DNA of 64,000 nt from Gracilimonas sp. Lineage in GTDB: Bacteria; Bacteroidota; Rhodothermia; Balneolales; Balneolaceae. The translations under genes were made by a program, and so were the position numbers. Within the stretch, counting starts at the first letter, position 1. Each line of letters begins with the position of its first letter. Positions 5,486 to 55,521 of the stretch are shown piece after piece. Location of the stretch: the NCBI RefSeq assembly GCF_965227785.1, contig NZ_OZ245785.1, forward strand, positions 1,446,293-1,510,292, read 5' to 3'. Under the pieces are notes generated by a model. It did not search any database. It had not been told where the DNA came from and saw nothing but the letters and a program-made list of their open reading frames with translations.

Positions 5486-5875
5486 ATGAAAAAGCTATTT
5501 CCTCAAGCTGTTATTCTCATCATAATTGTTTTAGTAGGATACGGTTGCATGGGCCCGGAGGAAGCTCCTAAGCCTGATAACCTGATCAGTGAACAAAATT
5601 ACATCGATCTCCTGATCGAAATGCAGCATATTTCTACCTACAGGGATGCCCAACCCGACAGCGTAAACGCTGATTCGCTGAAAGCGTTGGTCTACGATAA
5701 ATTTGGTATAACCGAAGAGCAGTTTCTAAACTCTCATACATTTTACCAAAAGCAGGTAGAGCGCCAATTAATCAGGGTACAGGAAGTGATTCGCCAGCTG
5801 GAAAATGAGGAGCAGTATATCCAGGTGCATATTGATTCCGTGAAGGCAGCAAAGAGAGATTCAACGGGGGGATAG
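5486..5875 (+). CDS. Small lipoprotein, DUF4296-like
   Basis: Lipobox LVGYGC. The helical body resembles Bacteroidota DUF4296 proteins; this is recalled from memory and not searched. Confidence 0.55.
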   Translation: MKKLFPQAVILIIIVLVGYGCMGPEEAPKPDNLISEQNYIDLLIEMQHISTYRDAQPDSVNADSLKALVYDKFGITEEQFLNSHTFYQKQVERQLIRVQEVIRQLENEEQYIQVHIDSVKAAKRDSTGG

Positions 5876-5914
5876 GTGTTAGGTTTTAGGGGCAAGGTTT
5901 TAGGTGTTAGGGGT
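5873..5914. repeat. Left arm of a heptamer-phased inverted repeat: six TAGGNNT-type units
   Basis: TAGGTGT TAGGTTT TAGGGGC AAGGTTT TAGGTGT TAGGGGT read in exact 7-nt phase. The first TAG is the stop of the 5486-5875 gene. Confidence 0.9.
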
Positions 5915-5917
5915 AGG

Positions 5918-6262
5918 TCACTTGTTTAAAAGGGTGTGTAGCATTTTTTGAACTTCGGTATTGAATTCCAGAGCGGAGTCAAGCTTATCGCTTTCAATAA
6001 TTTGATTTTCCTTAAGCAACAATAATTGGGTTTCAAGCTCAAAACTGGAACCAAGTGATATTCTCAGAAATCTTTTAAAATCTTTACGGCTTTCTCTGCT
6101 ACAAGCTTCAGCAATATTGGAAGGAACCGAAATTGATGATCTTATAATCTGATCTCTGTAAGTGTATCTCTCAACTTTTGGCAGTTCTTTAATGATGACA
6201 TGTACAATTGAAGTCATTTCCATGCTTCGCTGCCAAACTATAAGCTTTTTGAAATTTTTCAT
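5918..6262 (-). CDS. Four-helix-bundle protein (23S rRNA intervening-sequence protein family)
   Basis: 114 aa. LIVWQRSMEM..., PKVERYTYRDQIIRSSISVPSNIAEA, DFKRFLRISLGSSFELETQLLL are hallmark motifs of this family. Confidence 0.85.
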   Translation of the reverse strand: MKNFKKLIVWQRSMEMTSIVHVIIKELPKVERYTYRDQIIRSSISVPSNIAEACSRESRKDFKRFLRISLGSSFELETQLLLLKENQIIESDKLDSALEFNTEVQKMLHTLLNK

Positions 6263-6359
6263 CAGATCTACTCTTTGGCTTGTTATTCAGTAAGAGCTCT
6301 GAAAACCCAATTCCTTACAAAACTAAATAGTCTTTACTCAAATAGAAGCATGCACAAAC

Positions 6360-6408
6360 ACCACTAACACCTAAAACCTTGTCCCTAAAACCTAACCTAC
6401 CCTAACCT
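6360..6408. repeat. Right arm (reverse-complement units) of the TAGGNNT inverted repeat
   Basis: 6367-6394 ACACCTAAAACCTTGTCCCTAAAACCTA is the reverse complement of 5880-5907 with 1 mismatch (27/28). The arm overlaps the last codons and stop of recQ. Confidence 0.9.
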
Positions 6409-8328
6409 ACAATAATAGCCCGGTTTAGAGGGCACCGTGGTCACTTTATCCTCACGTATCAAAAACTGAAGGGCCTGCTGTACTTTTCGTTTAGACCGCC
6501 TGGTTGAACTGCATAGTTGAGATATCGTCTTTTCCTCCGATTTAAGTTCATCGTAAATAGCTTTTATGTCCTCATCAGTTGGATTAGCGTCTTCTGAGCA
6601 CCCATTTTTCAGGCAATTATCGCAGTGGCCGCAGGGCTCTGCATCCGTATCTCCAAAGTAATTTCGAAGATATACCTCCCGGCACTGATCGGTTAAAATA
6701 TATCCGTGCATATGTTCAAGCTTACGGAACAGGTTGTTTCGGTGCGACTCCACCTCTTTCTTTGTCAGTGGTAAGTTTTTGGAACGAGCTTCCAGCACTT
6801 TGACCAGGCTTCGTTGTTTATGCATCTCAAAAACCAATACCTGATCGTTCTGCATCAGCACGTTTAATCCTTTTACCAGGGCATTTCTGCGTATGCCGAG
6901 TTTATCCAACACATATTCTTCATCCAGCTGCACCATTTCTTTAAAGGCCAAACCCCCAAACATCCGCTCCAGCTTATCGGTGAATTCAGCCTTCTCCTCG
7001 TTCTTACACTTTTCCCGGAAAGTCTTCATCGCGTTTTGGCTGAGGGTAAACTGCACGCTTACCGCCGGCTTTACTTCTTCCTGCATAGCTATCACATCAA
7101 ACTGATCCAGCAGTCGCATGGCTGCACGTGCTTTTCCGTATTTAAGCTTTCCCCTTTTTTTGATCTGTTCGATGTCGAATGACATGGACTCTTCCATTTC
7201 TGATCCTACCGCCAGGTGAAAACTGTCGCATAAAACCTGATAGACGTGGTTCAGTTCATCCAACGTCGGATAACCCTGATCTATGCGGTCGTCGGCTTTG
7301 TGGTAGTCCGATTCTCTATAAAGTAAAATTGGAAAACTTTCTTCCCCATCCCGACCGGCCCGGCCTGCTTCCTGGTAGTAGGCCTCCAGTGAATACGGCA
7401 TCTCTTCATGAATTACATACCGGCAGTTGGGTTTATCAATCCCCATCCCGAAAGCATTAGTTGCAGCTACCAGTGGTGTTTCCCCTGAGATCCATCGCTG
7501 CTGAATGGCTTTACGTTCTTCTGATCCTACCCCTGCATGGTAGGCCTCGGTTTTTATACCCATTCGGGAAAACCGCTCGGCCTGCAACTCACAGTTCTTG
7601 CGGGTTCCGCCGTAAATAAGTCCATCTCCTTTCCGGGCTCCCTTTTTTACCGACTCCTCCAGCTTCTTTTTCTTATTGGGAGCATTAACTACCCACCATT
7701 TTAAATTAGGACGAGAAAATCCCCGGGAAATGACGTTAGCATCTTCAAAACCAATTGAATCCAAAATGTCTTTTTGAACCTCCGGCGTGGCTGTTGCCGT
7801 AAGGGCAATCCAACGGGTTTGATCGGCAATGGGTTCCAGCGATTCTCTTATATCCCGATAACTGGGTCGGAAATCATGCCCCCATTCACTAATACAATGT
7901 GCTTCATCAACTGCTACCAGGTCGATATTCAACCGTGGCATTTCTGCCTCCCAAAGTGTGGTTTTCAGTCGCTCCGGGGCGCAATACAACAGCTTGTACA
8001 TTCCATTTCTGGCATTCACTAACCGCTGCTCGACCTCATAAGATGGAATAGTACTGTTTATAAATGTGGCCGAAACACCTTTGGCCTTCAGTTGCTGAAC
8101 CTGGTCTTGCATCAGGGCGACAAGCGGTGAGATTACCAGCGTCATACCCTCAAAAACAGTAGCCGGAACCTGGTAACAAAGGGATTTCCCGCCACCGGTT
8201 GGAAAAAGCACCAGTGTATCCAACCCATCAAAAACAGAACGGACTACCTCATCCTGTCCTGGACGAAATCCATCAAACCCCCAAATTTTTTTTAAATTTA
8301 ATTCTGCTTTCTGAAAATAATCCTGCAA
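6397..8328 (-). CDS. recQ: RecQ-family ATP-dependent DNA helicase
   Basis: PTGGGKSLCYQ Walker A, DEAHCISEWGHDFRPSY, Zn-binding CGHCDNC, C-terminal winged-helix-like tail. Confidence 0.9.
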   Translation of the reverse strand: MQDYFQKAELNLKKIWGFDGFRPGQDEVVRSVFDGLDTLVLFPTGGGKSLCYQVPATVFEGMTLVISPLVALMQDQVQQLKAKGVSATFINSTIPSYEVEQRLVNARNGMYKLLYCAPERLKTTLWEAEMPRLNIDLVAVDEAHCISEWGHDFRPSYRDIRESLEPIADQTRWIALTATATPEVQKDILDSIGFEDANVISRGFSRPNLKWWVVNAPNKKKKLEESVKKGARKGDGLIYGGTRKNCELQAERFSRMGIKTEAYHAGVGSEERKAIQQRWISGETPLVAATNAFGMGIDKPNCRYVIHEEMPYSLEAYYQEAGRAGRDGEESFPILLYRESDYHKADDRIDQGYPTLDELNHVYQVLCDSFHLAVGSEMEESMSFDIEQIKKRGKLKYGKARAAMRLLDQFDVIAMQEEVKPAVSVQFTLSQNAMKTFREKCKNEEKAEFTDKLERMFGGLAFKEMVQLDEEYVLDKLGIRRNALVKGLNVLMQNDQVLVFEMHKQRSLVKVLEARSKNLPLTKKEVESHRNNLFRKLEHMHGYILTDQCREVYLRNYFGDTDAEPCGHCDNCLKNGCSEDANPTDEDIKAIYDELKSEEKTISQLCSSTRRSKRKVQQALQFLIREDKVTTVPSKPGYYCRLG

Positions 8329-8376
8329 TTTTAACCTGTTAGATTTTTTCTCTGTTTTACTTCAAAATACAAACCA

Positions 8377-9333
8377 ATGCGAACAAAATTTCTATTCCTG
8401 TTTTTAATTATTTCCACCTTGTTTTCCTGTGGAGTTGTTTTCAACAACGACAGTATTGATTATCGGGAAGAGATGCGAAGTTTTGTTCAGGAAATTTCTG
8501 AATACGCCAAAAATCAGAATCCCGACTTTGCCGTTATTCCTCAGAACGGTCACCCTCTGCTCTTGAAAAACGGAACCATAGCCACCGACTACCTCGACGC
8601 TGTGGATGGCCTGGCACAGGAAAGCCTTTTTTTCGGATACAGTAGCGATGATCAGCCAACACCGGCCACCGAGACTAACCAGCTCCTGAAGCTGCTCAAC
8701 ATCGGCAAGGAAGCCGGGAAAACCATCCTGGTAACCGACTACTGTTTCACTTCTTTCAAGGTAAACAATTCTTATAACCAAAATTCTTCGTTAGGATACC
8801 TCTCCTTTGCGGCTCCCGATCGGGATTTAACCGAAATCCCGGACCAGCCAAATCCATTACCCGGAGTAAATGACGAACAAATTTCCGGTCTATCAGAAGC
8901 CCACAATTTTCTGTATTTGTTGAATAAATCGCAATTTGATTCCAGGGCAGATTTCATCGAAGCTGTGCAAAACACGAATTATGACATCATCGTGATGGAT
9001 GCTTTTTATGGAAGCCGAATGTTCACTCCCGGTGAGGTAGAAGAGCTCAGGCAGAAGAAAAATGGCGGTGAGCGAATGGTGATTAGTTATATGAGCATCG
9101 GGGAAGCCGAAGACTATCGATACTACTGGCAGGAAGGCTGGAGCACCGGCAACCCGGAGTGGCTGGTTCAGGAAAACCCGAACTGGGAAGGAAACTACAA
9201 GGTGATGTATTGGCATCCTGAATGGAAATCCGTTATCTATGGAAATGAAGATTCTTACCTCCAAAAAATTCTGGATGCCGGTTTTGACGGCGTTTACCTT
9301 GACATTATTGACGGGTTTGAGTTTTTTGAATGA
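8377..9333 (+). CDS. Putative glycoside hydrolase, GH114 / TM1410-MJ1477 TIM-barrel family, secreted
   Basis: Signal/lipobox LFSC. ISYMSIGEAEDYRYYW and GFDGVYLDIIDGFEF resemble this family; recalled, not searched. Confidence 0.65.
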   Translation: MRTKFLFLFLIISTLFSCGVVFNNDSIDYREEMRSFVQEISEYAKNQNPDFAVIPQNGHPLLLKNGTIATDYLDAVDGLAQESLFFGYSSDDQPTPATETNQLLKLLNIGKEAGKTILVTDYCFTSFKVNNSYNQNSSLGYLSFAAPDRDLTEIPDQPNPLPGVNDEQISGLSEAHNFLYLLNKSQFDSRADFIEAVQNTNYDIIVMDAFYGSRMFTPGEVEELRQKKNGGERMVISYMSIGEAEDYRYYWQEGWSTGNPEWLVQENPNWEGNYKVMYWHPEWKSVIYGNEDSYLQKILDAGFDGVYLDIIDGFEFFE

Positions 9334-9393
9334 GCATCGAATTAAAAAGAGATAGCAAATTTCCCGGCTAATCAGGATTATTAAACAAATATT

Positions 9394-9864
9394 ATGAAGA
9401 ACTTCATTACAGTAACACTTTTTTTGGCATTCATGTTTTTAAGCGGATGCTCTCAAGGTGATATCATCGAGTCGAGCTATACCATCAAATCGGGTTCTTC
9501 ATTTGGTATGTGTACCGGACCTTGTTACCAGGAAATGTCTCTTAACGAATCCCAGGCAGTATTAAGAGTACGGGAAAGCAAGGGAGAAGGTGGCCTTTCT
9601 GAATTGAAAGTGGAAAGTAAAAGAGCCGTCAGCCCCCAGGAGTGGTCAGAAATTCAATCACTGGTCGATCAGGAGGCTTTAAATGCATTACCTAAAGTAA
9701 TTGGCTGTCCCGATTGTGCCGATGGAGGAGCCGAATGGGTGGAAATCCGAAGTCCCGGTTTTGTAAAGAAAGTTACTTTTGAATACGGGCAACCACCGGC
9801 CCAGATTAAAGAACTGGCTGACAGGCTCAGAGAAACACGTGAAAGTTTAAGTCCCCAGGAATAA
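9394..9864 (+). CDS. Hypothetical lipoprotein
   Basis: Lipobox FLSGC and a clean ORF with normal composition; no recognised domain. Confidence 0.6.
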   Translation: MKNFITVTLFLAFMFLSGCSQGDIIESSYTIKSGSSFGMCTGPCYQEMSLNESQAVLRVRESKGEGGLSELKVESKRAVSPQEWSEIQSLVDQEALNALPKVIGCPDCADGGAEWVEIRSPGFVKKVTFEYGQPPAQIKELADRLRETRESLSPQE

Positions 9865-9884
9865 GCTCTAACCCCTTTTTAATT

Positions 9885-10130
9885 ATGAAAACCATGACCT
9901 GCAAACAACTGGGTGGAGCCTGCGAACAGGAGTTCACCGCAGAAACTTTTGAAGAAATTGCAGAACTAAGCAGGCAGCATGGAACTGAAATGTTTAAACA
10001 GGGTGATGTTGATCACCATCAGGCCATGCAGGAGATGTCTGAGATGATGAATGATCCCGAGGCTATGCAACAGTGGATGGATAAGAAACGACAGGAATTT
10101 GAGTCACTTCCGGATAATAATACCCTATAA
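9885..10130 (+). CDS. DUF1059-like small protein
   Basis: MKTMTCKQLGGACEQEFTAETFEEI is a typical DUF1059 N-terminus. Confidence 0.6.
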   Translation: MKTMTCKQLGGACEQEFTAETFEEIAELSRQHGTEMFKQGDVDHHQAMQEMSEMMNDPEAMQQWMDKKRQEFESLPDNNTL

Positions 10131-10607
10131 CTCCAATACCATCAGTGCTACTTTCTTTTTGCCCCCTTCTGTTTTTTGCTCAGCCACTTTCCTGAATCCT
10201 ATTACTTTATGAAATTCCAGTGAATTAGGGTTCGGTGGTTTAAGGTTCACTTCACAGGTAATCAGCTTTTGCTCAGAGTTTTTGGCCAGATACTGATATA
10301 AAGCCGTACCAAGCTTCCTGCCTCTAAACTTTTCCGCGATAACAATACGATCCACATAATCAAAGTCGTCATAATTGTTAGAAAAGAACGCATAGTTTAG
10401 ACTTTCATAGTCCAGCCCTTTTTGAAGCACAATCATAAATCCTGCAAGCTCTCCCTCCTCTTCTATTATCAAAAAAGGGTTTGCCTTGTCCACATAATAT
10501 TCCATTTCACTAAGATCCTCACTGGTTACGTGGGGAACGGAGGCTTCGTTCAAAGCTAATACTGCAGGGAGATCTTCCTTTGTGGCATTCCTGATCTTCA
10601 TCAACAA
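10125..10607 (-). CDS. GNAT family N-acetyltransferase
   Basis: RGRKLGTALY acetyl-CoA binding motif (R/QxxGxG/A); 160 aa. Confidence 0.8.
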   Translation of the reverse strand: MLMKIRNATKEDLPAVLALNEASVPHVTSEDLSEMEYYVDKANPFLIIEEEGELAGFMIVLQKGLDYESLNYAFFSNNYDDFDYVDRIVIAEKFRGRKLGTALYQYLAKNSEQKLITCEVNLKPPNPNSLEFHKVIGFRKVAEQKTEGGKKKVALMVLEL

Positions 10608-10679
10608 AAAAATTTGGTAATTAACAGCTGAAATTTCGACGTTCTGTAACCTAAATCAAACTAATTGTAATAGCTACTT

Positions 10680-11822
10680 ATGGACTGCAAAAAATCTTAC
10701 TTCCGGCTCGATGAATCGGTCACCTATCTTAACTGTGCCTATATGTCGCCACAGCTGAAATCAGTAGAAGAGGCCGGAGTTTGGGGTGTTCAACGAAAAC
10801 GTAACCCGTTTAAAATTTCACCGGATGAGTTTTTTGGTGAAACGGATCAGCTTAGGGATGAATTTGCCAAACTAATTAATGCCAATGATCCTAAACGCAT
10901 CGTGGTTATACCCTCTGTTTCTTACGGAATGGCTAATGTTGCTAAGAACGTAGAGATTTCCCAAGGCGATAATATCATACTTGTGGGTGAACAGTTTCCG
11001 AGTAATGTTTATCCATGGCGGTCGGTGGTTCAGGAAAAAGGCGGTGAGATAATCACCATCACCCCTCCCAAAGAACATGAAAACCGGGGCAAGATCTGGA
11101 ATGAGAAGGTACTAAATGCCATCAACGACCGGACGAAACTGGTAGCAATGGGAAACATCCATTGGGCTGATGGCACACTGTTTGACTTGAAAACTATCCG
11201 AAAACGTACCCGGGACGTGGGAGCATGGCTTGCCATCGATGGAACGCAATCGGTGGGAGCTCTCCCTTTTGATATTTCTGAAATTCAACCTGATGCCTTG
11301 GTTTGTGCCGGATACAAATGGTTGATGGGACCATATTCCATTGGTCTGGCTTACTATGGACCTGCGCTGGATAACGGCAAGCCGGTCGAAGAAAACTGGA
11401 TCAATCGCTACGAAAGTGAAAACTTCGCAAACCTGGTCAATTATAATGATGATTATCAGCCGGGAGCTTTACGCTACGAAGTAGGTGAACACAGTAATTT
11501 CATCCTTGTTCCCATGATGCTTAAAGCCATTCAACAGCTGAATGAATGGGGCGTGGAGAACATCCAGCAGTATTGCCGGGATTTAATTGCCGAACCTGTT
11601 GACAAGCTAAAAGCAGCCGGCTACAGAATTGAAGATTCTGATTACAGAGCTTCTCACTTGTTTGGAATTCGGTTGGGCGAATCACATGACATGGATCAGA
11701 TTAAAGCTGCGTTTGATAAGCAAAACATCCTGGTGTCCTTCCGGGGTGATTCTATTCGGGTTTCGCCTAATGTGTACAATACGCAAGAAGAGATAGAGCA
11801 GCTTGTGCACACGTTAGCTTAG
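10680..11822 (+). CDS. Aminotransferase class V-fold PLP-dependent enzyme
   Basis: CAGYKWLMGP (PLP lysine region) and length and layout typical of the cysteine desulfurase/epimerase-like fold. Confidence 0.75.
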   Translation: MDCKKSYFRLDESVTYLNCAYMSPQLKSVEEAGVWGVQRKRNPFKISPDEFFGETDQLRDEFAKLINANDPKRIVVIPSVSYGMANVAKNVEISQGDNIILVGEQFPSNVYPWRSVVQEKGGEIITITPPKEHENRGKIWNEKVLNAINDRTKLVAMGNIHWADGTLFDLKTIRKRTRDVGAWLAIDGTQSVGALPFDISEIQPDALVCAGYKWLMGPYSIGLAYYGPALDNGKPVEENWINRYESENFANLVNYNDDYQPGALRYEVGEHSNFILVPMMLKAIQQLNEWGVENIQQYCRDLIAEPVDKLKAAGYRIEDSDYRASHLFGIRLGESHDMDQIKAAFDKQNILVSFRGDSIRVSPNVYNTQEEIEQLVHTLA

Positions 11823-11831
11823 TAAAACAGT

Positions 11832-26731: not shown

Positions 26732-26888
26732 GAATGATGAAGTGAGGAGTGAAAGGGTGATTGGGTGATATTGATTCATATGTCAATTCTGATATACTGA
26801 GCTGTTCAGTTATAGTTATTTCGGAGTTATCCTTAAGATGACATCAACTCTCACTTTATCACTCATCACTCTATCACCCTATCCTCCC
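26732..26888. repeat. GTGA-type heptamer/octamer palindromic element without ORF
   Basis: Left arm GAAGTGA GGAGTGA AAGGGTGA TTGGGTGA; right arm TCACTTTA TCACTCA TCACTCTA TCACCCTA; 78-nt centre. Confidence 0.8.
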
Positions 26889-27844: not shown

Positions 27845-27910
27845 GTAGATTTAAGACGCAAGATGTAAGATTTAAAGAAAATTTATCTTACATCTTGTGT
27901 TTTATGTCTC
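27845..27910. repeat. AGANNNA heptamer palindrome containing a 13-bp perfect hairpin
   Basis: AGATTTA AGACGCA AGATGTA AGATTTA in phase. Stem 27859-27871 CAAGATGTAAGAT pairs with 27885-27897 ATCTTACATCTTG. Confidence 0.85.
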
Positions 27911-28800: not shown

Positions 28801-29997
28801 ATGCTCTCCGGTAAACGCATCATTCTTGGTGTTACCGGAGGAATTGCAGCCTATAAAGCTGCTTTTTTACTCAGAGAATTTCAAAAAGCGGGAGCCGAAG
28901 TCCGCGTCACCATGACGCCTTCAGCCACCCGCTTTGTTGGTTTAGAAACCTTTGCCTCCCTTTCCGGCCATGAAGTAGCCGTAGACATTTTTCCTGATGA
29001 AGGAGATTCCAGCGACTGGACCCGCCACATAAACTGGGGCGAATGGGCCGATCTTTTCGTAATTGCTCCCTGTACGGCTAACACGCTCGCCAAAATCGCT
29101 ACCGGACTTTCTGACAACATGCTTACCAGCACCGTACTGGCTGCTCGTTGCCCAATACTGATTTGCCCGACCATGGACGGGGAGATGTATGAATCGCCCG
29201 GAGTTTCTGATAACCTGAAAAAGGTGCAGGAGAATGGATATCATGTTTTAGAACCGGAATCAGGTTACCTGGCCAGTGGATTACATGGAAAAGGACGGTT
29301 ACCGGAAATAGAATCCATCCTCGAAAAAACTTCTGATATCATTGGATCCATTGAAGGTCCATTAGAAGGAAAAAAAGTGGTTGTTACAGCCGGTCCGACC
29401 CGGGAGCATATCGATCCTGTTCGATTTATTTCCAACCCAAGTTCGGGTAAGATGGGATCGGCAATGGCACAAGCAGCACAAAGCCTTGGGGCGGACGTCA
29501 CCCTGATTCATGGCCCGCTTTCCATCCCCACTCCCGAGGGTATTCATTTTGTAAAAATTACCAGTTCGGCTGATTTATTTGAAGCCGTTAAAGAATATGC
29601 TGAAGCGGATGTAATCATTATGGCAGCTGCGGTCTCGGACTTCACCCCTGAACAAGTCCATCAACATAAAGTAAAAAAGGAAAGCGCCGGCAATGAGATT
29701 AAACTGAAGAGAACACAGGATATTTTAGCCTGGCTGGGTGAGCATAAACAAGATGGGCAGGTTTTGATCGGTTTTGCCATGGAAACCGAAAACCTGATCG
29801 AAAACGCAACTTCCAAGCTCAATAAGAAGAATGCCGATTTTATTATTGCCAATTCTTTAAATGACAAAGATGCCGGTTTTGAAGCGGACACCAATGCCGT
29901 TCATCTGTTGAGTAAAAACTCCGAACAAAAATTTCAGGGAAGCAAAAAAGACATTTCCATCGAAATTCTGAATACCATTTTTAGAAGAGATGAGTGA
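28801..29997 (+). CDS. coaBC: Bifunctional phosphopantothenoylcysteine decarboxylase / phosphopantothenate-cysteine ligase
   Basis: [14 protein letters not shown]-like [25 protein letters not shown]. Confidence 0.9.
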
Positions 29998-30131
29998 TGA
30001 AGTGATAGGTGACGAGTAAAAAGTGAAATTATTTGAGGAGAACCTCCTGACATTCTTATCTGTTCAGATTAAGGACCTATACTCAGCTTATTATTTTTAA
30101 CCAATTCACCCTATCACTTTATCACCTTTCA
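29990..30131. repeat. GTGA-type heptamer palindromic element, second copy
   Basis: Left arm GAGTGA TGAAGTGA TAGGTGA CGAGTAA AAAGTGA; right arm TTCACCCTA TCACTTTA TCACCTT TCAC. Shares the exact words CACTTTATCAC and TCACCCTATC with 26849-26888. The arms overlap the stops of coaBC and of the 30129 gene. Confidence 0.8.
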
Positions 30132-31277
30132 CTGGCACATCCATTTGTACACCCGGTAGGTTTTGGCAATCTCACAACCCAATGCCTCCAGGCTTCGACG
30201 CATAATCCAGTTCTTTTCGCTGACAAACCCTCCCTCCAGTACTTTTAGATTCGGGTAATGTTTTTTTGTCCACCTGAAGCCTTCTATAAATACCAAAGCC
30301 TCTAACCCTCTTCCCCGAAAACGTGGGTCTGTCCCAAAAGCCAGAGGACGAAATTTTTGAGCTCTTTTTTTGAAACCAAGCAGATGGTAAAGCTGCCACC
30401 ACTTTAGCGTACCTCCGGTTTTAGCTGATATTTCATGTAAATCAGGTACGCTTACCAAAAATGAAGCCGGCTCTCCATTTACAAAAGCAATAGGTGAAGT
30501 TTCCGGCATTAGCACCGGCTTCAGCTTTTTGATCATTTGCCGGATCGTTTGCTGAGTGATACCGATGAACTCTTCTTCCCTTTCTCCAACTACCTGATCA
30601 CTGAAAGCCCGGTTGTAGATCTGACGAATCATCTCTCCGTCCCGCTGCAAGTTCTTCTTGTCAATAGGGCGGACTTCAACATGATCTTTTGATTTCAATC
30701 GTTCAGTAATTCTGAGCAAACGTTCCGGCAGAGCCTGCTCCAAATCCAGCTGATACATGTACACATCATCAAATTTTTCGGGATCGGTTTCTTCAATCAG
30801 CTCTTCGTAGTACTCCTGATGATATAGCATTCCATATACATTGTGATCTTCAAACCCGCTGATCTGAATTCCCCAAAAGGTGTCGTTCTCTCCAAAATTA
30901 ATGGGGCCCCGAAATCCTGCATAACCCCGTTCCCGATGCCACTTTCTTGCAAAACTGATCATTGATTCAGCAATGCCGGGAATATTTTCCATCTCTATAA
31001 AACCAACACCACCAAGCTTTGGATCATATCGCTCATCTTTTTCGGGATCAGCAAAAACCGCAAACCGGCCCACAGCATTGCCATTCTTCAAAACCAGAAA
31101 TCGCTCACATTCCCCTCCTTTCCGAAACCGTTCGTTTTTCTTACGACTGAATACATTTTCCACTTCAAACCGAAAAGGCGACCGATACCACTTGCTGTCT
31201 TTATACAGCCGTTCGGGAAGCCGGTGAAATTCGTCTATATGTTGTTGAGCTTCAATTTTTTGAATCTGAAAAGACAT
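30129..31277 (-). CDS. Uncharacterised GNAT-fold-like acyltransferase family protein (about 380 aa)
   Basis: Pattern LYKDSKWYRSPF...FLVLKNGNAVGRFAVF...GFIEM...FRGPINFGEND resembles a Bacteroidota acyltransferase-like family; recalled only. Confidence 0.55.
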   Translation of the reverse strand: MSFQIQKIEAQQHIDEFHRLPERLYKDSKWYRSPFRFEVENVFSRKKNERFRKGGECERFLVLKNGNAVGRFAVFADPEKDERYDPKLGGVGFIEMENIPGIAESMISFARKWHRERGYAGFRGPINFGENDTFWGIQISGFEDHNVYGMLYHQEYYEELIEETDPEKFDDVYMYQLDLEQALPERLLRITERLKSKDHVEVRPIDKKNLQRDGEMIRQIYNRAFSDQVVGEREEEFIGITQQTIRQMIKKLKPVLMPETSPIAFVNGEPASFLVSVPDLHEISAKTGGTLKWWQLYHLLGFKKRAQKFRPLAFGTDPRFRGRGLEALVFIEGFRWTKKHYPNLKVLEGGFVSEKNWIMRRSLEALGCEIAKTYRVYKWMCQ

Positions 31278-32676: not shown

Positions 32677-32820
32677 TTCTTCGACCTCTTCTGTCTTCTC
32701 CTTATCAAGGAGAAGGACTCGTTGAAAAAGATTTATTTCAAGATCAAGATTTGAAACATTAAGAGGCAAGGAAAATTTCTCTCCCTGTGAAGGAGTCCCG
32801 ATTATCGTGAAGAGAGGTCA
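32677..32820. repeat. Composite purine/pyrimidine-rich palindromic spacer (AAGGAGA-like units)
   Basis: Inner hairpin GTCTTCTCCTT-ATC-AAGGAGAAGGAC (32693-32718). Outer arms GACCTCTTC (32683-32691) and GAAGAGAGGTC (32809-32819) pair imperfectly. Confidence 0.55.
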
Positions 32821-32829
32821 AAAATGTGG

Positions 32830-48582: not shown

Positions 48583-48596
48583 TAAGTAGCTTTGAA

Positions 48597-48645: not shown

Positions 48646-49275
48646 ATGCAAGTATCAAAACCATCAAATAAAAACCCGAAAATCAGCACCATCAAAGATT
48701 CTGAATATATTGAACGGCTTAACCGCCATGATGAATCCGCCTTTAAGTTATTGGTGAATGATCATAAGGATCAGGTATATAACACCTGCCTGGGGTTTTT
48801 ACGAAATCCGCATGATGCCGAAGATGTAGCACAGGAAGTGTTTATTCAGGTATTTGATTCTATAGATGATTTCCGGGAAGACGCTGCGCTATCAACCTGG
48901 ATTTATCGCATTGCGGTTACCAAATCCCTGGAATTGATTCGATATAGAAAACGAAAGAAAAGATCCGGTTTCTTTAAAGCCATTGGATCTGTTTTCAGTG
49001 AACCGGACGAGCAGGAGGATGAGTCGGGATATATGCATCCGGGTATAAAGCTGGAAAACAAAGAACGAGCTGCGACTTTATTTAATGAAATTGAAAAGCT
49101 GCCTGAACGTCAGCGGGTGGCCTTCACTTTACAGAAAGTAGAAGGACTTAGTTATCAGGAAGTAGCCGATGTCATGGACATAAGTGTTCCCGCTGTTGAA
49201 TCACTCATTCACCGCGGGAAAGAAAACCTGAAAAAGCAGTTATATGACTATTATCAACAAAATGAATTGGGTTGA
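48646..49275 (+). CDS. ECF-type RNA polymerase sigma-70 factor (start moved to ATG 48646)
   Basis: Region 2 DAEDVAQEVFIQVF, region 4 LSYQEVADVMDISVPAVESLIHRGKENLK. The track start at 48592 lies inside a terminator hairpin. Confidence 0.85.
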   Translation: MQVSKPSNKNPKISTIKDSEYIERLNRHDESAFKLLVNDHKDQVYNTCLGFLRNPHDAEDVAQEVFIQVFDSIDDFREDAALSTWIYRIAVTKSLELIRYRKRKKRSGFFKAIGSVFSEPDEQEDESGYMHPGIKLENKERAATLFNEIEKLPERQRVAFTLQKVEGLSYQEVADVMDISVPAVESLIHRGKENLKKQLYDYYQQNELG

Positions 49276-49278
49276 ATC

Positions 49279-49608
49279 ATGAAAAATCAAAAGCAAACAG
49301 ATCGGGAAGTGGAGAAAACCCTGGCATCGCTGGACGGAATAGAGCGTGCCAACACCGATGACTTCTTTTACAGTCGGGTTACAGCACAGCTTGAAAAGCG
49401 CAACAAGGCCAGGGAATCTTCCGGTTTTGGGGTAGCTTTTGCTGCCGCAGCTGTATTCATTATACTGGTATTAAACCTGATTTTCATTTCCCAATACGAC
49501 CCTGCAACTGATGCAACAGCCACTACCCGAACCGAAGTTGTTGAGCAGCTGGCATCCGACTATCAATCCTTTGACCTGAATTATTACCAAACTTTTGAGG
49601 AAGAGTGA
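49279..49608 (+). CDS. Single-pass membrane protein, candidate anti-sigma factor
   Basis: Placed 3 nt after the sigma gene; has a central TM. Position-based call only. Confidence 0.45.
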   Translation: MKNQKQTDREVEKTLASLDGIERANTDDFFYSRVTAQLEKRNKARESSGFGVAFAAAAVFIILVLNLIFISQYDPATDATATTRTEVVEQLASDYQSFDLNYYQTFEEE

Positions 49609-49609
49609 T

Positions 49610-50122
49610 ATGAAAATTGAAACCAAATTTAAATGGGCTTTAACCGGTTTTCTTGTGATGGTACTGCTCAACGCTGCACTTCTTACCACAATCTGGGTTA
49701 AAAAGTCAGGTAACCGTGACGGAAGAAGCTTTCGCGACAATGACCGGAATCCAAATGTTATTCACCGATATATGCAGCGAGAGCTACAGCTCACCGATGT
49801 CCAGACCGATTCCTTGTCTGCTTTGCGCAAATCACATTTTCAGGAGATGAGGGAACTTCGAAAGGAGCTTAACGAAGACCGGCGTTCCTATTTTAATTTT
49901 ATCATGGGTGATGAAGCCGATAATGACCAAAAGCGCGACTCTATCCTGACTGAACTCACCAACCGGTACAACCTCATTGAGAATATGTTTTATACCCATA
50001 TGACGGACATGAAAGAAATCCTCAACAGTGAGCAGCAGGAACGTTTTGAGCAGTTGATGAGGGAGACTTTTCTCCATGACCGAAAAGATGGCAGCATGAA
50101 AATGCCCAATAGAAACAGGTAG
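49610..50122 (+). CDS. Membrane-anchored Spy/CpxP-like periplasmic protein (start moved to ATG 49610)
   Basis: N-terminal TM; LQLTDVQTDSL LTxxQ motif. Confidence 0.55.
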   Translation: MKIETKFKWALTGFLVMVLLNAALLTTIWVKKSGNRDGRSFRDNDRNPNVIHRYMQRELQLTDVQTDSLSALRKSHFQEMRELRKELNEDRRSYFNFIMGDEADNDQKRDSILTELTNRYNLIENMFYTHMTDMKEILNSEQQERFEQLMRETFLHDRKDGSMKMPNRNR

Positions 50123-50171
50123 ACTAATCGTTTGTCGATGTTCGGGCGATTATTGCGTATCTTTAACGCCT

Positions 50172-51284
50172 ATGAATACTACTGAAATTGCCCAAAAAAC
50201 CGACCTTAAAGCATTAACCAAAGAAGAGCTTACCCATTTTTGTAAAGAGCTGGGCTTACAGAGCTTTCGCTCCGACCAGATTTTCCAATGGCTTTACCAA
50301 AAAGGGGTTTCTGATTTTGAAGAAATGACGAATCTCTCTAAAGATCTCAGGGAAAAACTTCGTGAAATCGCTACCATCAATCGTATTAAACCGGTTCAGC
50401 AGCAGGAAAGTAAAGACGGTACCATTAAGTTTCTTTTTAAGCTAAACGATCCCGAAGAGGATTATAAAGTTGAAGCTGTTTTAATCCCGGACTTTTTTGC
50501 TGACGGAGCCGCTCGCCGGCTTACCGTTTGTGTGTCTTCCCAGGTTGGGTGTGTTTTTGGATGTGCCTTCTGTGCAACCGGAAAAATGGGGCTTTTCCGC
50601 AACCTGACCCACGGTGAAATTGTAGATCAGGTGCAATACATCAACGAGCTGGCCGAAGAAAAGTATGGCAAGAAAATCACTAACATTGTGTATATGGGGA
50701 TGGGCGAACCGCTACACAACTATAAAGCCATCACCAATTCAGCCCATATCATTTCAGATCCGCTAAGCATTGAGCTTTCCCCAAAACGAATTACGGTTTC
50801 CACCGTTGGGCTGACCAAGCAGATTAAAAAACTGGCTGATGATCAGGAGGAGTTTAACCTGGCTATTTCCCTTCACGCACCTACAGACGTAAAGCGGGAT
50901 AAGATTATGCCTATCAACAGCTCCATGAACCTGGAAAGCCTGGAAGATGCCGTTAAATATTATTACAAGGCTACTGAGCGATCCATTACCTACGAATACC
51001 TGCTTTTCGACAACTTTAATGACAGCCCCCAGGACGCCCGTGATTTAGCTAAAATTGTAAAGTGGGTGCCCAGCAAGGTGAATATCATTATGTATAACAA
51101 TGTAGCCGGTGTGGAGCTTCAGCGAGCAAGAGAAGACCGGTTGGACAATTTTATGCGTGAACTTATCAAAAATGATGTACGGGCAACTGTTCGAAGAAGT
51201 CGGGGTGATGATATTGACGCCGGCTGTGGTCAACTGGCTATTCGGGAAGGAGCTCCCAAAGGCAAAACGATGGCGAAGAAGTAA
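50172..51284 (+). CDS. rlmN: 23S rRNA/tRNA (adenine-C2)-methyltransferase RlmN
   Basis: Radical SAM CVFGCAFCATG, GMGEPL; C-terminal GDDIDAGCGQL. Confidence 0.9.
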   Translation: MNTTEIAQKTDLKALTKEELTHFCKELGLQSFRSDQIFQWLYQKGVSDFEEMTNLSKDLREKLREIATINRIKPVQQQESKDGTIKFLFKLNDPEEDYKVEAVLIPDFFADGAARRLTVCVSSQVGCVFGCAFCATGKMGLFRNLTHGEIVDQVQYINELAEEKYGKKITNIVYMGMGEPLHNYKAITNSAHIISDPLSIELSPKRITVSTVGLTKQIKKLADDQEEFNLAISLHAPTDVKRDKIMPINSSMNLESLEDAVKYYYKATERSITYEYLLFDNFNDSPQDARDLAKIVKWVPSKVNIIMYNNVAGVELQRAREDRLDNFMRELIKNDVRATVRRSRGDDIDAGCGQLAIREGAPKGKTMAKK

Positions 51285-51294
51285 GATATAGTTT

Positions 51295-51371
51295 TCAGGA
51301 GTCAGGAGTCAGAATTCAGTACTCAGAATACAGAATTCTGACTCCTGTTTTCTGAGTTCTGAATTCTCTTC
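51295..51371. repeat. Eleven in-phase heptamers: six (T/A)CAGNNN units, then five (T/C)CTGNNN-type units, palindromic about the 51336/51337 junction (inside GAATTC 51333-51338)
   Basis: TCAGGAG TCAGGAG TCAGAAT TCAGTAC TCAGAAT ACAGAAT | TCTGACT CCTGTTT TCTGAGT TCTGAAT TCTCTTC. Fills the rlmN/lepB convergent spacer. Confidence 0.9.
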
Positions 51372-51374
51372 CCT

Positions 51375-52478
51375 CTAATCAATCATCGTAAAAATTCGCT
51401 CGAAGCGTGGCACCCAGTTGTCGGTGGAGAACCATACGATAGATGCTTTTCCGATAACATGATCACTTGGTACAAAGCCCCAGAAACGGGAGTCCTGACT
51501 GTTATCGCGGTTATCTCCCATCGCAAAGTAATAATCCTGCTTAATGGTATAGGAATTTGTCTCTTCCCCGTTGATAAAGATCTTTCCGCTTTCTCTCCTG
51601 AGTTCGTTCTTTTCGTATCGCTCAATGATATCTTTATAGATGAACCAGTTATCATTGGTGATTTGAACTTCCTGTCCTTCAAACGGTATCACGATTTCAG
51701 GGAGTTGATCTGAATTGTTGAATGCCCTTGAAAAATCTCCCGAACTCTGCACATAATTTCGATCTACACTGCCCTCAGGTGTCACATTCAAAAACATGGT
51801 ATCCACTTCAGCCCATCCGCTAACAGTTGAAGCCACATCATCTGTCATATTCACCACATAGGTATTGTTGTTGGTGTAACCGATGAGTTCTCCGCCAACC
51901 GATTCCATTTTAGCATTACTCAGGCGTACTCTCTCTGCCATTCGCACCACATAATGTCGCTGTACACCTTCATGCTGCACCGCTTTTTCTCCGTTGATGT
52001 AAAGGATTTTGTCCTGGATTGAGATGGTATCTCCGGGAATAGCTACAGCTCTTTTGATATAATTTGTTTTTTGGGAGACAGGCTTTACTTCCCACGGCAC
52101 ATTAAATACAAAAATATCGTTTCGTTCTACATCACGGAAACCAGGCAGTCGGGTCCATGGAAGCTGAACACCTGGCACGCACCATCCCTGCAAAAAAGGC
52201 ACACACAATCCCATGGGGGTTCTGGGACCGTAGGTTACATTGGATACGATGAGCAAGTCACCCGTCATCAGTGTTTTCTCCATAGAAGGAGTGGGGATCT
52301 TGTACGACCCGAACAGAAAAGCCCTAAGAATAGCCGCAGCAATAAACGCAAAGACTATGGCATCTACCCACTCTCGCAGCCATGATTTAGCCTTCTTATT
52401 TTCTTCTTCTTTCTTTTCCTTCCTTTTCTTCCAATATGAGCTGATTCCCTGCTCTTCGGGATTTTTATTTTCTTCCAA
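51375..52478 (-). CDS. lepB: Signal peptidase I
   Basis: IPTPSMEKTL (Ser box), YIKRAVAIPGD (Lys box), GDNRDNSQDSRFWGFV. Confidence 0.85.
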   Translation of the reverse strand: MEENKNPEEQGISSYWKKRKEKKEEENKKAKSWLREWVDAIVFAFIAAAILRAFLFGSYKIPTPSMEKTLMTGDLLIVSNVTYGPRTPMGLCVPFLQGWCVPGVQLPWTRLPGFRDVERNDIFVFNVPWEVKPVSQKTNYIKRAVAIPGDTISIQDKILYINGEKAVQHEGVQRHYVVRMAERVRLSNAKMESVGGELIGYTNNNTYVVNMTDDVASTVSGWAEVDTMFLNVTPEGSVDRNYVQSSGDFSRAFNNSDQLPEIVIPFEGQEVQITNDNWFIYKDIIERYEKNELRRESGKIFINGEETNSYTIKQDYYFAMGDNRDNSQDSRFWGFVPSDHVIGKASIVWFSTDNWVPRFERIFTMID

Positions 52479-52492
52479 CTTCGGGGTATTTA

Positions 52493-53074
52493 TTATGTTT
52501 TGATATGAGAGGGCTTCTTGATTTCCTCTTTCTTGTATTCGCCGGCCTCATAGGAAACTTTATACCACTGTCCTCTTTCCGGTGAATAAAAGTAGTCAAC
52601 GTATTCTTTGGGTGATGTATCCCGTAATTCTTTAGTCAGTGTTCGTTTCACCTGTGGCATTAAATCCACATAGCGACTGGCACCTACATATACCAGCCCA
52701 TCATCAAACGGGCCTTCGAGATCGAGCACCATCATTGGAATATATCCATCAATGATGAACCAATATTCAAATTGTATTGATTTCCCATCCCGTAAGTATC
52801 CATCTTTTTCAATGATATCTTCCACCTTTTGGGTTGGATCGCCATACGCTCCCTGCAGAACAGCACGAATTTCGATTGCGGGCATTCGGTCCAGTTCATT
52901 ATAATTGAATCCTTGCCCGGTCCATTTTATATCAGCAAATCGTGACTGGAACTCCGCCCTGTCTTCATTACTCACTTTCTTGATATCCGGCTCCTCGAAC
53001 TGTGCCTGAGCAGCCGTAGATATCATCACCATCATTACAAAAAAGAAAAAGAATTGTTTCGTCAATCTCTGCAT
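52493..53074 (-). CDS. Hypothetical secreted protein
   Basis: Signal peptide ending AQAQ; sits between lepA and lepB; no domain recognised. Confidence 0.55.
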   Translation of the reverse strand: MQRLTKQFFFFFVMMVMISTAAQAQFEEPDIKKVSNEDRAEFQSRFADIKWTGQGFNYNELDRMPAIEIRAVLQGAYGDPTQKVEDIIEKDGYLRDGKSIQFEYWFIIDGYIPMMVLDLEGPFDDGLVYVGASRYVDLMPQVKRTLTKELRDTSPKEYVDYFYSPERGQWYKVSYEAGEYKKEEIKKPSHIKT

Positions 53075-53080
53075 AAGAAT

Positions 53081-54886
53081 CTATCTGTCGTCTTCGTCCA
53101 TAGATAGCACGGCAAGGAATGCTTCCTGAGGTATTTCAACCGTACCTACCTGTTTCATTCGTTTTTTACCTTCTTTCTGTTTTTCAAGCAACTTTCGTTT
53201 TCTGGAAATATCACCACCGTAACATTTCGCGGTAACGTCTTTTCGCATCGCGCGAACGGTATCACGGGCAATCACCCGGTTTCCGATAGCCGCCTGTACA
53301 GCTACTTCAAACTGTTGCTGAGGAATAAGTTCCTTTAATTTTCCACAAACTTTACGTCCAAGGTAATAGGCCTTATCACGGTGGGTAATGCTTGACAATG
53401 CATCCACCTGGTCGCCGTTCAGCATGATGTCCAAACGCACAAGATCGCCTTTTCGGTATTCGATAAATTCATAATCGAGAGAAGCATATCCGCGGGTTCC
53501 TGATTTCAACCGATCATAGAAATCAAAAACAACTTCAGCCATCGGCAGTTCATACGTAATTTCGACGCGATTATTTTGCATGAACAGCTGGTTTACATAA
53601 ATCCCCCTCCGCTCCTGGCATAATTTCATAATCGGGCCAATGTAATCAGCCGGAGTAATGATACTCGCCTTAATGTATGGCTCATAGATAGCTTCGATGT
53701 CGCCGGCACCGGGCATCTGGCTTGGGTTATCTACTTCAATCCGGTTACCACTTTCAACCAGCTCCACTTCGTACTGCACATTGGGAACCGTGGTAATAAT
53801 ATCGATATCAAACTCACGATCGAGGCGCTCTTGTACAATTTCCATATGCAGAAGTCCGAGGAATCCGGCACGAAATCCAAAACCCAGTGCCTTCGAGGTT
53901 TCCGGTTCATAGGTCAGGGAAGCATCGTTCAGCTGAAGTTTTTCAAGGGCAGCGCGCAGGTCTTCAAAATCGTCGGAATCAGTCGGGAAGATTCCACTGA
54001 ACACCATGGGTTTGGCTTCCTGGTAACCCGGAATAGGTTCTTTAGCGGGGTCATCCACTTTGGTGATGGTATCACCCACACGAACGTCCTGCAGGGATTT
54101 CACACTCCCGATTACATATCCTACTTCACCGGCGTGCAATTCTTTGGTGGGCTCCTGCTTCATTTTCAGGTAGCCAATCTCTTCGGCATTATACTCCTCA
54201 TGATTAGACATGAATTTGAAGAGATCTCCTTTTCGAAGTACACCCTCCATTACCCGTACGTACGCTACCGAACCCCGGTAGGTATTAAAAACGGAGTCAA
54301 AAATAAGTGCACGAAGTGGCTTGTCTTCTTCTCTTTTGGGGCCGGGAACTTTCTTTACAATTTCTTCGAGAAGCATATCCACTCCTTCCCCGGTTTTCCC
54401 GGATACGTGAAGAATGTCTTCGTATTCACACCCGATCATATCCACAATCTGCTGTCCCACCCCTTCAGGATCGGCGCCGGGCAAGTCAATTTTGTTCAAC
54501 ACCGGGATAATCTCCAGGTCTTGGTCGATTGCCTGATATAGGTTTGAAATGGTTTGGGCTTCAATCCCCTGTGCGGCATCAACAACAAGAATAGCACCTT
54601 CACACGCTTTTAACGCACGGGATACTTCGTAGGCAAAATCAACGTGGCCGGGGGTGTCAATCAGGTTGAAGATATAGTCGTTACCATCCGGGCTTTTGTA
54701 ATCCATTCGGATGGCGTGACTTTTAATAGTAATACCACGCTCACGCTCCAAATCCATGTCATCCAGCATTTGCTCTTTCATCTCCCGCTCGCTGATGGCG
54801 CCGGTAAGCTGAAGAAGTCGGTCTGCTAAGGTTGATTTCCCATGATCAATATGGGCAATGATGCAAAAGTTTCGAATGTTATTCAT
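53081..54886 (-). CDS. lepA: Translation elongation factor 4
   Basis: [28 protein letters not shown]; LepA-specific C-terminal domain. Confidence 0.95.
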
Positions 54887-54975
54887 GTGCGGAATTCGGT
54901 GCGTCTCACTTTAAATAACAAAGATACAAAGAAGGCAGGAGCTGTTAAAATTTCGTTATCAAAGAAAATATACTT

Positions 54976-55050
54976 AGTTATTCGTTATTCGAATTATCGA
55001 AATAGTTAACCATTCCAACTAAAAAGTGTAATCTGATTACGAATAACGAA
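54976..55050. repeat. CGTTATT heptamer array plus its inverted copy, downstream of hisE
   Basis: AGTTATT CGTTATT CGAATTA TCGAAAT. TTCGTTATTCG (54981-54991) is the exact reverse complement of CGAATAACGAA (55040-55050). Confidence 0.8.
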
Positions 55051-55051
55051 A

Positions 55052-55402
55052 TCACTCTCCGATGTGCTTGTGGGTACCTTTGTCGTGCCGTTTACGCAGC
55101 CTTTTTATAACTTTGTGAAGGGGAATTTCTTTTTCTGCAAGCAACAGCATGAGGTGAAAAATCAGATCTGCCGCCTCGTTGATCGTCTCTTTATCTTTGG
55201 TATTCTTTGAAGCGATTACAGTTTCAACGGCTTCTTCTCCGACTTTTTGGGCTATTTTATCAATGCCTTTTTTGTACATGGATGTAGTGTAGGAACCATC
55301 CGGCATTTCAGACTTTCTGTCGTAGAGCAATTCTTCCAACTCTTTCAGAAATTTCAAGTCCTTTTTTGTCAGTGTTTTAATATCAGCCATTTCTAAACTC
55401 AT
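55052..55402 (-). CDS. hisE: Stand-alone phosphoribosyl-ATP pyrophosphohydrolase-like protein (HisE / MazG-type all-alpha NTP-PPase)
   Basis: SYTTSMYKKGIDKIAQKVGEEAVETVIA...EAADLIFHLMLLL...VIKRLRKRH matches the HisE signature. Confidence 0.8.
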   Translation of the reverse strand: MSLEMADIKTLTKKDLKFLKELEELLYDRKSEMPDGSYTTSMYKKGIDKIAQKVGEEAVETVIASKNTKDKETINEAADLIFHLMLLLAEKEIPLHKVIKRLRKRHDKGTHKHIGE

Positions 55403-55487
55403 GTATGCTTTTATTTGCGGGTGTGAAGTTCACCATTTTATGCCACCCAAACAACGGTTTTTCTAAAATTTAATACTGGGGTAAAGC

Positions 55488-55521
55488 TCTCGTTATTCGT
55501 TATTCAGTCGTTGGTCGTTGG
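55488..55521. repeat. CGTTATT / TCGTTGG heptamer array upstream of hisE
   Basis: CGTTATT CGTTATT CAG TCGTTGG TCGTTGG. TCGTTATTCG (55490-55499) is inverted relative to 55040-55050. Confidence 0.8.

Follow-up and report, generated by a model that had tools for sequence, protein, structure and literature searches.

The subject of this study is a set of palindromic arrays of short tandem repeats in the genome of the bacterium Gracilimonas sp. (Balneolaceae). They lie in a stretch of 64,000 nt (contig NZ_OZ245785.1, positions 1,446,293 to 1,510,292), hereafter called the window, and are numbered below as sites 1 to 6. The most complete array pair, site 1, lies between a DUF4296 gene and recQ and encloses a gene for a 23S rRNA intervening-sequence protein (IVP, also known as S23p). 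This gene was not recognized in the first-pass annotation of the window, which described the arrays alone, and it is the key to their nature. The parts of site 1 (5873-6410) are as follows.

5873 to 5916, no strand assigned: left arm, about six degenerate TAGGNNT heptamers, in which the DUF4296 gene has its TAG stop (5873-5875)
5918 to 6262, minus strand: IVP gene, coding for a 114-aa four-helix-bundle protein of the 23S rRNA intervening-sequence protein family (PF05635, TIGR02436)
6263 to 6357, minus strand: IVP upstream region, which includes a 32-nt block at 6288-6319 and was recognized by comparison with related loci L001 and L175
6358 to 6410, no strand assigned: right arm, reverse-complement units CCTAAAA/CCTAACC, encoding the final codons of recQ and its stop (6397-6399, minus strand)

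The two arms of site 1 are complementary at 95% over 37 nt, Tandem Repeats Finder (TRF) assigns them periods of 7 and 21, and the RNA fold of the whole element has z-scores of -8.6/-6.5. The family assignment of the protein encoded at 5918-6262 is clear: it matches PF05635 with an E-value of 1.7e-33 and the TIGR02436 profile ("four helix bundle protein") with 113.8 bits against a cut-off of 24, and its relatives in the PDB are 2GSC (XCC0516) and 2RLD. The neighbors of the element are the protein-coding genes DUF4296 and recQ, and not the flanks of a 23S rRNA helix. Exact-protein look-ups for the IVP, the DUF4296 protein and the SDR proteins of the window returned no match, and relatives were reached through homologues. 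Those of the IVP assign the window to Gracilimonas (Balneolaceae).

These relatives revealed the dynamics of the element. In L176 and L177 the site is empty, with the stops of DUF4296 and recQ only 8 nt apart; the DUF4296 protein is 26 aa longer there, and recQ ends in PGFYKLI* as opposed to PGYYCRLG* in the window. The left arm is therefore inserted DNA, and the last codons and stops of both DUF4296 and recQ in the window are encoded by the arrays. L001 is syntenic with the window, and its flanks and arms align in the forward direction, whereas the interior (ORF and upstream region; ORF, open reading frame) is inverted at 89% identity. In L175, both arms are kept and most of the ORF is gone, so that only the upstream block and ~50 nt at the end of the ORF remain between them. 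The 32-nt block at 6288-6319 (TGTAAGGAATTGGGTTTTCAGAGCTCTTACTG, minus strand) is identical in L001, is kept in the ORF-deleted L175 and is more conserved than the ORF; the upstream region possibly also contains a -7 box of the Bacteroidetes type, TAGTTTTG. Arm similarity is 95% and 87% within a genome and 79-84% from one genome to another. Related genomes thus differ by gain and loss of elements, the center flips between the arms, and the ORF can be deleted to leave a "solo" palindromic array.

Two further observations concern the surroundings of site 1. The metagenome contigs L173 and L174 both end at their position 4648, inside the left TAGG array, and heptamer arrays appear to break short-read assemblies. 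Proteins encoded around site 1 (window 1-9000) have best database matches of only 92-95%, whereas a hypothetical protein at 52.5-53.1 kb is 97-99% identical to those of sequenced Gracilimonas and an rpoZ-like protein at 28.5 kb has several exact matches; the genome looks mosaic between window positions 1-9000 and 18000-63000.

The association of IVP genes with heptamer arrays is not a peculiarity of Gracilimonas. We fetched 80 IVP loci from the Fibrobacterota-Chlorobiota-Bacteroidota (FCB) group and compared the 150-nt flanks of the gene; 78 loci were analyzed. An inverted match scoring at least 12 surrounded the IVP gene in 60% of them, compared with 1% of 439 shifted controls, and a period-7 array was present in 65% of the 156 IVP flanks but only in 2% of 878 control flanks (other periods, 0-2%). 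The best period was 7 in 34 of the 35 arms of at least 20 nt, and the dominant units were TTAGCTN, TGAGCTN, CAAGCTN, CGAGTTN and TTAGGTN. When all non-ORF segments of these loci were considered, 67% of those adjoining an IVP gene carried a period-7 array as against 15% of those elsewhere, where periods 6 and 9 were found in ~1% and period 8 in 5%. These values indicate both that IVP genes are strongly embedded in arrays and that solo heptamer arrays are common in the genomes that carry IVP. The orientation of the gene was also non-random: IVP almost always lay in sense downstream of a co-oriented gene, and its orientation relative to the neighbors in 75 loci was ++ (58), +- (11), -+ (5) or -- (1). 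An intervening sequence within a polycistronic transcript is arranged in this way, with arms able to pair around the ORF.

The module of gene and arrays is also found in other phyla, and also within 23S rRNA. Outside the FCB group, 10 of 12 plasmid-borne IVP loci reached a period-7 score of 16 or more on at least one flank. Perfect IVP arms consist of (TAGGGAG)n/(CTCCCTA)n in Nostoc edaphicum, (ACAGGTG)n/(CACCTGT)n in Anabaena 90 and (GGGAACA)n/(TGTTCCC)n in Nostoc C052, while the loci of Gemmatirosa and Picosynechococcus have octamer arrays, and in Pseudanabaena IVP is accompanied by (AAAAGCT)x14 and (AAAAGCC)x9 in direct orientation. An Azospirillum locus, L189, is a genuine intervening sequence (IVS) of 23S rRNA with heptamer-phased inverted arms of the TCAGAGG/ACGGATG type. 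As to their genomic settings, IVP cassettes were seen within operons of cyanobacterial plasmids (L178, L181, L188, L180), between cas6 and cas4 in Pseudanabaena and Anabaena 90, between cas10 and cmr3 in Picosynechococcus, and, in Nostoc edaphicum, between the genes for the beta and alpha subunits of ribonucleotide reductase.

Within the window itself, period 7 is in excess: four regions were detected with a window of 21 and a threshold of 15, compared with 0.47 expected from 40 dinucleotide-preserving shuffles, and a second setting gave three regions versus 0.42. Periods 4-6 and 8-11 were at background; period 12 reached 3-4 regions, none of them at the sites claimed. TRF called period 7 at 5873-5911, 27847-27875, 51294-51367, 54977-54991, 55490-55505 and 55507-55521, and period 8 at 26851-26883, 29984-30006 and 30112-30133. 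An inverted-repeat search found paired convergent arrays on opposite strands, and the top inverted repeats of the entire window were sites 1, 5 and 3, followed by site 2. At least two to four tandem 7-nt units are present at sites 1, 3, 5 and 6a, while the period is 8 at sites 2 and 4, as in class 1 of the Geobacter sites discussed below. The units belong to at least four families within the 64 kb rather than to a single genome-wide consensus. In eight 20-kb loci of relatives, stringent arrays likewise had periods 7 or 8 only, save one period-9 region. No Rfam family reached its gathering threshold and no rRNA was found anywhere in the window; at E-values up to 1, the only Rfam hits were chance microRNA-hairpin matches on site 3.

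The first-pass annotation, which had proposed at least seven period-7 palindromic sites, is thus upheld for five or six of them and fails for the one near 32.7 kb. It had placed the stops of DUF4296, recQ, coaBC, the gene at 30129 and hisE in or against arrays and the lepB stop 4 nt beyond one, and all these positions are correct. The general statement that the arrays occur at gene ends holds for most sites, but site 2 lies between divergent gene starts and site 6a upstream of hisE.

Besides site 1, two sites in the window are minimal heptamer hairpins that lack an ORF.

27847 to 27909, plus strand: site 3, minimal hairpin of NNAAGAN units that follows the yicC stop and precedes the gmk start, with arms at 27847-27871 and 27885-27909
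51295 to 51367, no strand assigned: site 5, palindromic array of TCAGGAG/TCAGAAT followed by the complements, with the center GAATTC, between the convergent rlmN and lepB stops

The arms of site 3 are 84% complementary over 25 nt with period 7, and its fold z-scores are -8.2/-6.6. The position of the hairpin is kept in close relatives and more distant relatives do not have it; the arms are replaced between lineages, and phase and pairing persist. The four stem substitutions among close relatives all lead to G.U on the sense strand and none to A.C, and this 4:0 pattern is a small hint of an RNA stem. Site 5 is a period-7 palindrome that can pair in three registers 7 nt apart (fold z -4.7/-5.0), and its unit also flanks IVP in Nostoc punctiforme and Aulosira (TCAGGAG/TCAGAAG). 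The corresponding fold z-scores for sites 2 and 4 range from -2.1 to -3.6.

Several other features were noted near these two sites or their orthologues. In the window, TRF and the period scan flagged a T-rich repeat of period 9-11 (TTTCTTTTC-like) at 52391-52439, inside the 5' part of the lepB ORF (51375-52478). A gene for a 996-aa protein with FG-GAP repeats and a type IX secretion system tail is inserted beside rlmN in the close relatives L163 and L164 (13017-16021) and is absent from the window and from L161 and L162. In one Balneolaceae metagenome contig, L091 (4316-5389), an insertion between gmk and the rpoZ-like gene consists of a 295-aa gene and, after it, a (GTTCAGG/ACTCAGG/ACTCAAG)n array; here a heptamer array may delimit another kind of cargo.

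Sites 2 and 4 represent a second ORF-less type, whose arms are built of octamers.

26732 to 26770, no strand assigned: site 2, left arm, GTGA-type units of period ~8, in a divergent promoter region
26771 to 26848, minus strand: site 2, conserved core of ~70 nt (nhmmer E-value 3e-15), its orientation flipped relative to L165
26849 to 26888, no strand assigned: site 2, right arm, recognized by the inverted-repeat search and in relatives
29986 to 30026, no strand assigned: site 4, left arm, octamer-type, holding the coaBC stop (29995-29997), where coaBC and a 382-aa gene converge
30027 to 30105, no strand assigned: site 4, spacer diverged from the 70-nt core, with no nhmmer match
30106 to 30133, no strand assigned: site 4, right arm, holding the stop of the gene at 30129 (30129-30131, minus strand)

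The GTGA units of these sites had been taken for heptamers; TRF and the period scan gave period 8 or a mixture of 7 and 8 instead. Site 2 lies between the divergent starts of a carbamoyltransferase gene (minus strand) and yicC (plus strand). The window, L165 and L166 have its element of ~160 nt, which L167, L082 and L084 lack; in L165 the element includes a perfect (CATCACCA)x9 array. The 70-nt core, which has opposite orientations in L165 and the window, also occurs at site 4 of L165, L167 and L168, and nhmmer detected it nowhere but at site 2 and site 4 in Gracilimonas. The 382-aa protein encoded next to site 4 (30129-31277) is conserved across Gracilimonas and has no Pfam or NCBIfam match.

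The region of hisE contains two further sites, of which one is a hairpin and the other a remnant of arrays.

54976 to 55050, minus strand: site 6b, hairpin with a stem of ~12 bp, TTCGTTATTCG / CGAATAACGAA, just 3' of hisE
55490 to 55521, no strand assigned: site 6a, decayed arrays (TCGTTAT)x2 and (GTCGTTG)x2, upstream of hisE

The hairpin at site 6b is kept in relatives through the compensatory change TTAATCG/CGATTAA, and its fold z-score is marginal; site 6a (55484-55527) gives no fold signal (z +0.8). The CGTTATT family that had been proposed for this region therefore amounts, in the window, only to a hairpin with a 12-bp stem and four decayed units, but at the spot orthologous to site 6a close relatives have long, perfect heptamer arrays of variable copy number. 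Copy number differs between the near-identical strains L161 and L162, (AACTTGG)x6 against x9 being an example of such strain variation, and the unit type also differs. We considered hisE as the cargo of a second cassette and rejected this idea: it encodes a genuine phosphoribosyl-ATP diphosphatase (TIGR03188, 103 bits), and in relatives both arrays lie upstream of hisE and not around it.

The site near 32.7 kb (32677-32820), described as a looser AAGGAGA-like array, proved to be of another kind. The window contains here (32683-32826), between a hydrolase gene and surE, nested hairpins GACCTCTTC...CTTCTCCTTATCAAGGAGAAG...GAAGAGAGGTC that are non-periodic, conserved in L165, L167 and L168, and without an Rfam match; they may be a separate structured RNA. 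In relatives we also saw GC-rich hairpins, GTTCCGRCGCNGAGCGTCNGAAC, which resemble repetitive extragenic palindromes (REPs) and are often paired and located next to or inside heptamer elements (~11760-11800 at the site-5 orthologue in L161-L164, 14500-14620 in L165, 15090-15200 in L166 and 4690-4760 in L175). This REP-like hairpin is absent from the window.

Taken together, these sites are probably palindromic tandem-repeat elements of an IVS-like kind that are related to the IVP cassette, some with the ORF and some without it. Each element is composed of two inverted arrays of a degenerate 7-nt unit (8-nt in one subfamily) around a variable center. Site 1 is the complete form, with the IVP gene and the conserved upstream block in its center; the remaining sites lack the ORF, 3 and 5 being minimal hairpins and 2 and 4 octamer-armed. 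Arms evolve as units are gained and lost, and the two arms of one element resemble each other somewhat more than orthologous arms do.

A possible mode of action can be outlined from the precedent of rRNA. Once transcribed, the arms would pair into a long imperfect stem, which RNase III would probably cut, as it does in the IVP-bearing IVS of 23S rRNA. Cleavage would release the center and separate or end the flanking transcripts. Because the units are rich in stop triplets, insertion into the last codons of a gene would be harmless, and ORF-less copies might retain the activity of the stem alone, as processing structures or as structures of 3' ends. Our confidence in the RNase III mechanism is lower than that in the IVS-like identity of the elements.

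Several lines of evidence weigh against the IVS-like reading, and some of them bear on the RNA stem. Mismatches between IVP arms have no sense-strand wobble bias (G.T 80 versus A.C 89 in 65 loci), so that this test for strand-specific RNA selection on the arms was negative. Arm-to-arm identity is 0.80 in register and still 0.67 after a shift of 7 nt, so the similarity is mostly that of a shared unit, and many stems would therefore be interrupted every 7 nt. In Pseudanabaena no stem is possible, since the arrays are direct. The proposed RNase III cleavage or 3'-end role takes its basis from the rRNA IVS elements. No ORF-less site in the window has been traced to an IVP cassette, and their units differ from TAGGNNT. 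The 70-nt core has no relation to IVP detectable by nhmmer, and tblastn against 80 metagenome loci of the gmk region found no IVP gene at the sites orthologous to sites 2-4. Neither a target-site duplication nor a mobilizing enzyme was found; no duplication is visible when filled sites are compared with empty ones, which come from diverged genomes.

The lack of wobble bias, the predominance of shared-unit similarity and the direct arrays of Pseudanabaena keep alive a different model, in which the arrays are sites for a DNA- or RNA-binding factor, possibly a pentameric IVP or a global regulator, that bracket a regulated or packaged segment. Related units indeed recur in distant taxa: YNAGNTN (TTAGCTN, TGAGCTN, CAAGCTN, TTAGGTN) at ~60 loci, and TCAGRAN in Gracilimonas, Nostocales and Geobacter, whose describers also proposed the binding of a regulator (PMC2700814). 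We nevertheless regard this model as unlikely, given that at least four unit families occur in 64 kb beside one IVP gene, that Gracilimonas arms are 95-100% complementary in register, and that the arms of site 3 were replaced between lineages with pairing kept. Less likely still are ordinary bidirectional terminators or mRNA 3' stabilizers that arose in place, with the units as by-products of slippage in AT-rich hairpins. Three sites do lie between convergent genes and abut their stop codons, several form strong hairpins, and the position of the site-3 hairpin is conserved in close relatives. However, this explanation does not fit the location of site 2 between divergent starts and of site 6a upstream of hisE, the presence/absence differences between strains, the confinement of the period to 7 or 8, or the tight association with one protein family across phyla. 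The terminator role had been part of the first-pass annotation, and it found no support: a terminator scan called no Rho-independent terminator at any site in the 24-34 kb region, and no T-run follows sites 1 and 5. In the absence of T-tracts and terminator-scan calls, classical termination is unlikely. The same annotation had suggested translational stops in all three frames, which is arithmetically true of such units, but such stops are provided by only ~30% of IVP-flanking arms (29% in the inward direction and 34% outward, against 9% of shuffles). Neither direction is favored, a pattern that is more in keeping with a by-product of period 7 than with selection for directional stop codons.

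A purely neutral origin is about as improbable as that of terminators. The arrays would then be hypermutable simple-sequence repeats or contingency loci with no identity as elements, in which IVP is merely tolerated or to which it is drawn as unstable DNA. The copy-number difference between L161 and L162, the fast turnover of units, and the period-7 arrays in 15% of the other intergenic segments of IVP-bearing genomes are what such loci would exhibit, but the neutral explanation accounts neither for the inverted pairing nor for the co-insertion of arms and gene at an empty site, and leaves unexplained the 70-nt core common to two loci, the 58:1 bias in IVP orientation and the identical architecture inside 23S rRNA. 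It is conceivable, although we hold this more tentatively than the IVS-like identity itself, that IVP and the heptamer or octamer arrays form one widespread, unrecognized selfish or semi-domesticated element, in which IVP is the dedicated partner that binds, protects or propagates the arrays, and which is the common source of the 23S rRNA IVS, the short tandemly repeated repetitive (STRR) sequences of cyanobacteria, the Xanthomonas GGGAATC pairs, the paired Geobacter sites and the solo palindromic arrays.

The present data tie together two puzzles of about thirty years' standing, i.e., the function of IVP/S23p proteins and the abundance of tandem heptamers (STRR and similar) in some bacterial genomes. 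Phased 7- or 8-mer arrays flank IVP genes in bacteria of the FCB group, in cyanobacteria, in Gemmatimonadota and in proteobacteria, and genomes that carry IVP also hold many solo arrays. It is now possible to test whether IVP binds or acts on the arrays, whether the stems serve in mRNA as RNase III sites as in rRNA, and whether IVP paralogues match unit families. As the arrays alter the 3' ends of genes and flip the DNA between their arms, they deserve to be annotated as elements and not as anonymous intergenic sequence.

Among known systems, the IVSs of 23S rRNA that carry an IVP/S23p ORF (Coxiella burnetii, Azospirillum L189) share with site 1 the central protein family, terminal inverted repeats that form a long stem, and tandem heptamers in the stem region; as in IVP cassettes in general, their ORF is in sense within the host transcript. 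Leptospira has another such IVS. These sequences lie in helix 9, 25 or 45 of the rRNA, whereas the window element lies between protein-coding genes and is accompanied by ORF-less and octamer-armed derivatives. In Coxiella, the 28-bp terminal stem of the IVS is cut by RNase III, and three or four GACAGAT heptamers, whose number varies among strains, precede the IVP ORF (PMC4990558). Excision by RNase III is known for Coxiella and other rRNA IVSs (PMC4990558).

Mobile or variable elements of other kinds were also compared. Like MITEs (miniature inverted-repeat transposable elements), the elements have terminal inverted repeats and no ORF, occur in several copies (the 70-nt core at two loci) and vary in presence (site 2 is empty in L167, L082 and L084); like invertons, they contain a segment between inverted repeats that occurs in both orientations, although only between genomes. 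Unlike in either class, the arms are arrays of tandem repeats and not unique terminal inverted repeats, and no transposase or invertase was found. IVP is also a distant homologue of Avd, the accessory protein of diversity-generating retroelements (PF22296 bAvd, 28.8 bits against a cut-off of 40; NF033474, 26.5 against 80). We rejected an identity with Avd, as these scores are below the thresholds and the neighbors of the gene are DUF4296 and recQ, with no reverse transcriptase or template/variable repeats nearby.

The STRR heptamers of cyanobacteria were reportedly described by Mazel and coworkers in 1990. Like the window arrays, STRR and TAACTGA repeats are intergenic tandem heptamers of variable copy number with stops in all frames, and they occur in cyanobacteria and some Bacteroidetes; they are mostly direct arrays, often just upstream of start codons, and a palindromic arrangement or an association with IVP is not described for them. 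The TAACTGA repeats come from a paper that reported heptamer arrays from five Bacteroidetes (MacGregor 2015, PMC4679880). Geobacter metallireducens has paired "global regulator binding sites" on opposite strands, each composed of four tandem octanucleotides or five tandem heptanucleotides (Aklujkar et al. 2009, PMC2700814); its heptamer, MTYCTGA, gives the TCAGRAK unit of site 5 when reverse-complemented. These sites belong to a different phylum, are read as regulator sites, and have no associated gene reported. In Xanthomonas, 186 arrays of GGGAATC heptamers, 70 (70-75) of them convergent inverted pairs, lie near the ends of upstream ORFs (Rehm et al. 2015, PMC4692102). Like the window arrays, they are tandem heptamers between genes, in many cases with one array on each of the two strands, and their length differs between related species; however, one G-rich unit is used genome-wide and is read as G-quadruplex-forming, whereas the window has several AT-richer families with no G-quadruplex potential. 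A table in the same paper lists a GGGAATC array that overlaps the start of XCC0516, the crystallized IVP homologue (PMC4692102).

The first-pass annotation, which did not recognize the palindromic, gene-end form in FCB-group bacteria, needs revision on this point in view of the published paired or tandem heptamers in Xanthomonas, Geobacter, five Bacteroidetes and the Coxiella IVS. The link to IVP is absent from the Xanthomonas, Geobacter and Bacteroidetes heptamer papers, the Coxiella paper mentions heptamers for that IVS alone, and nothing in the literature searched, subscription papers aside, explicitly described heptamer arrays on the flanks of IVP genes outside rRNA. The finding stands and is of greater interest than a collection of odd terminators would be, and its novelty is re-framed: the window sites resemble kinds of array that had already been described, whereas the link between IVP and the arrays appears undescribed, and the new part is the module that they form across phyla.

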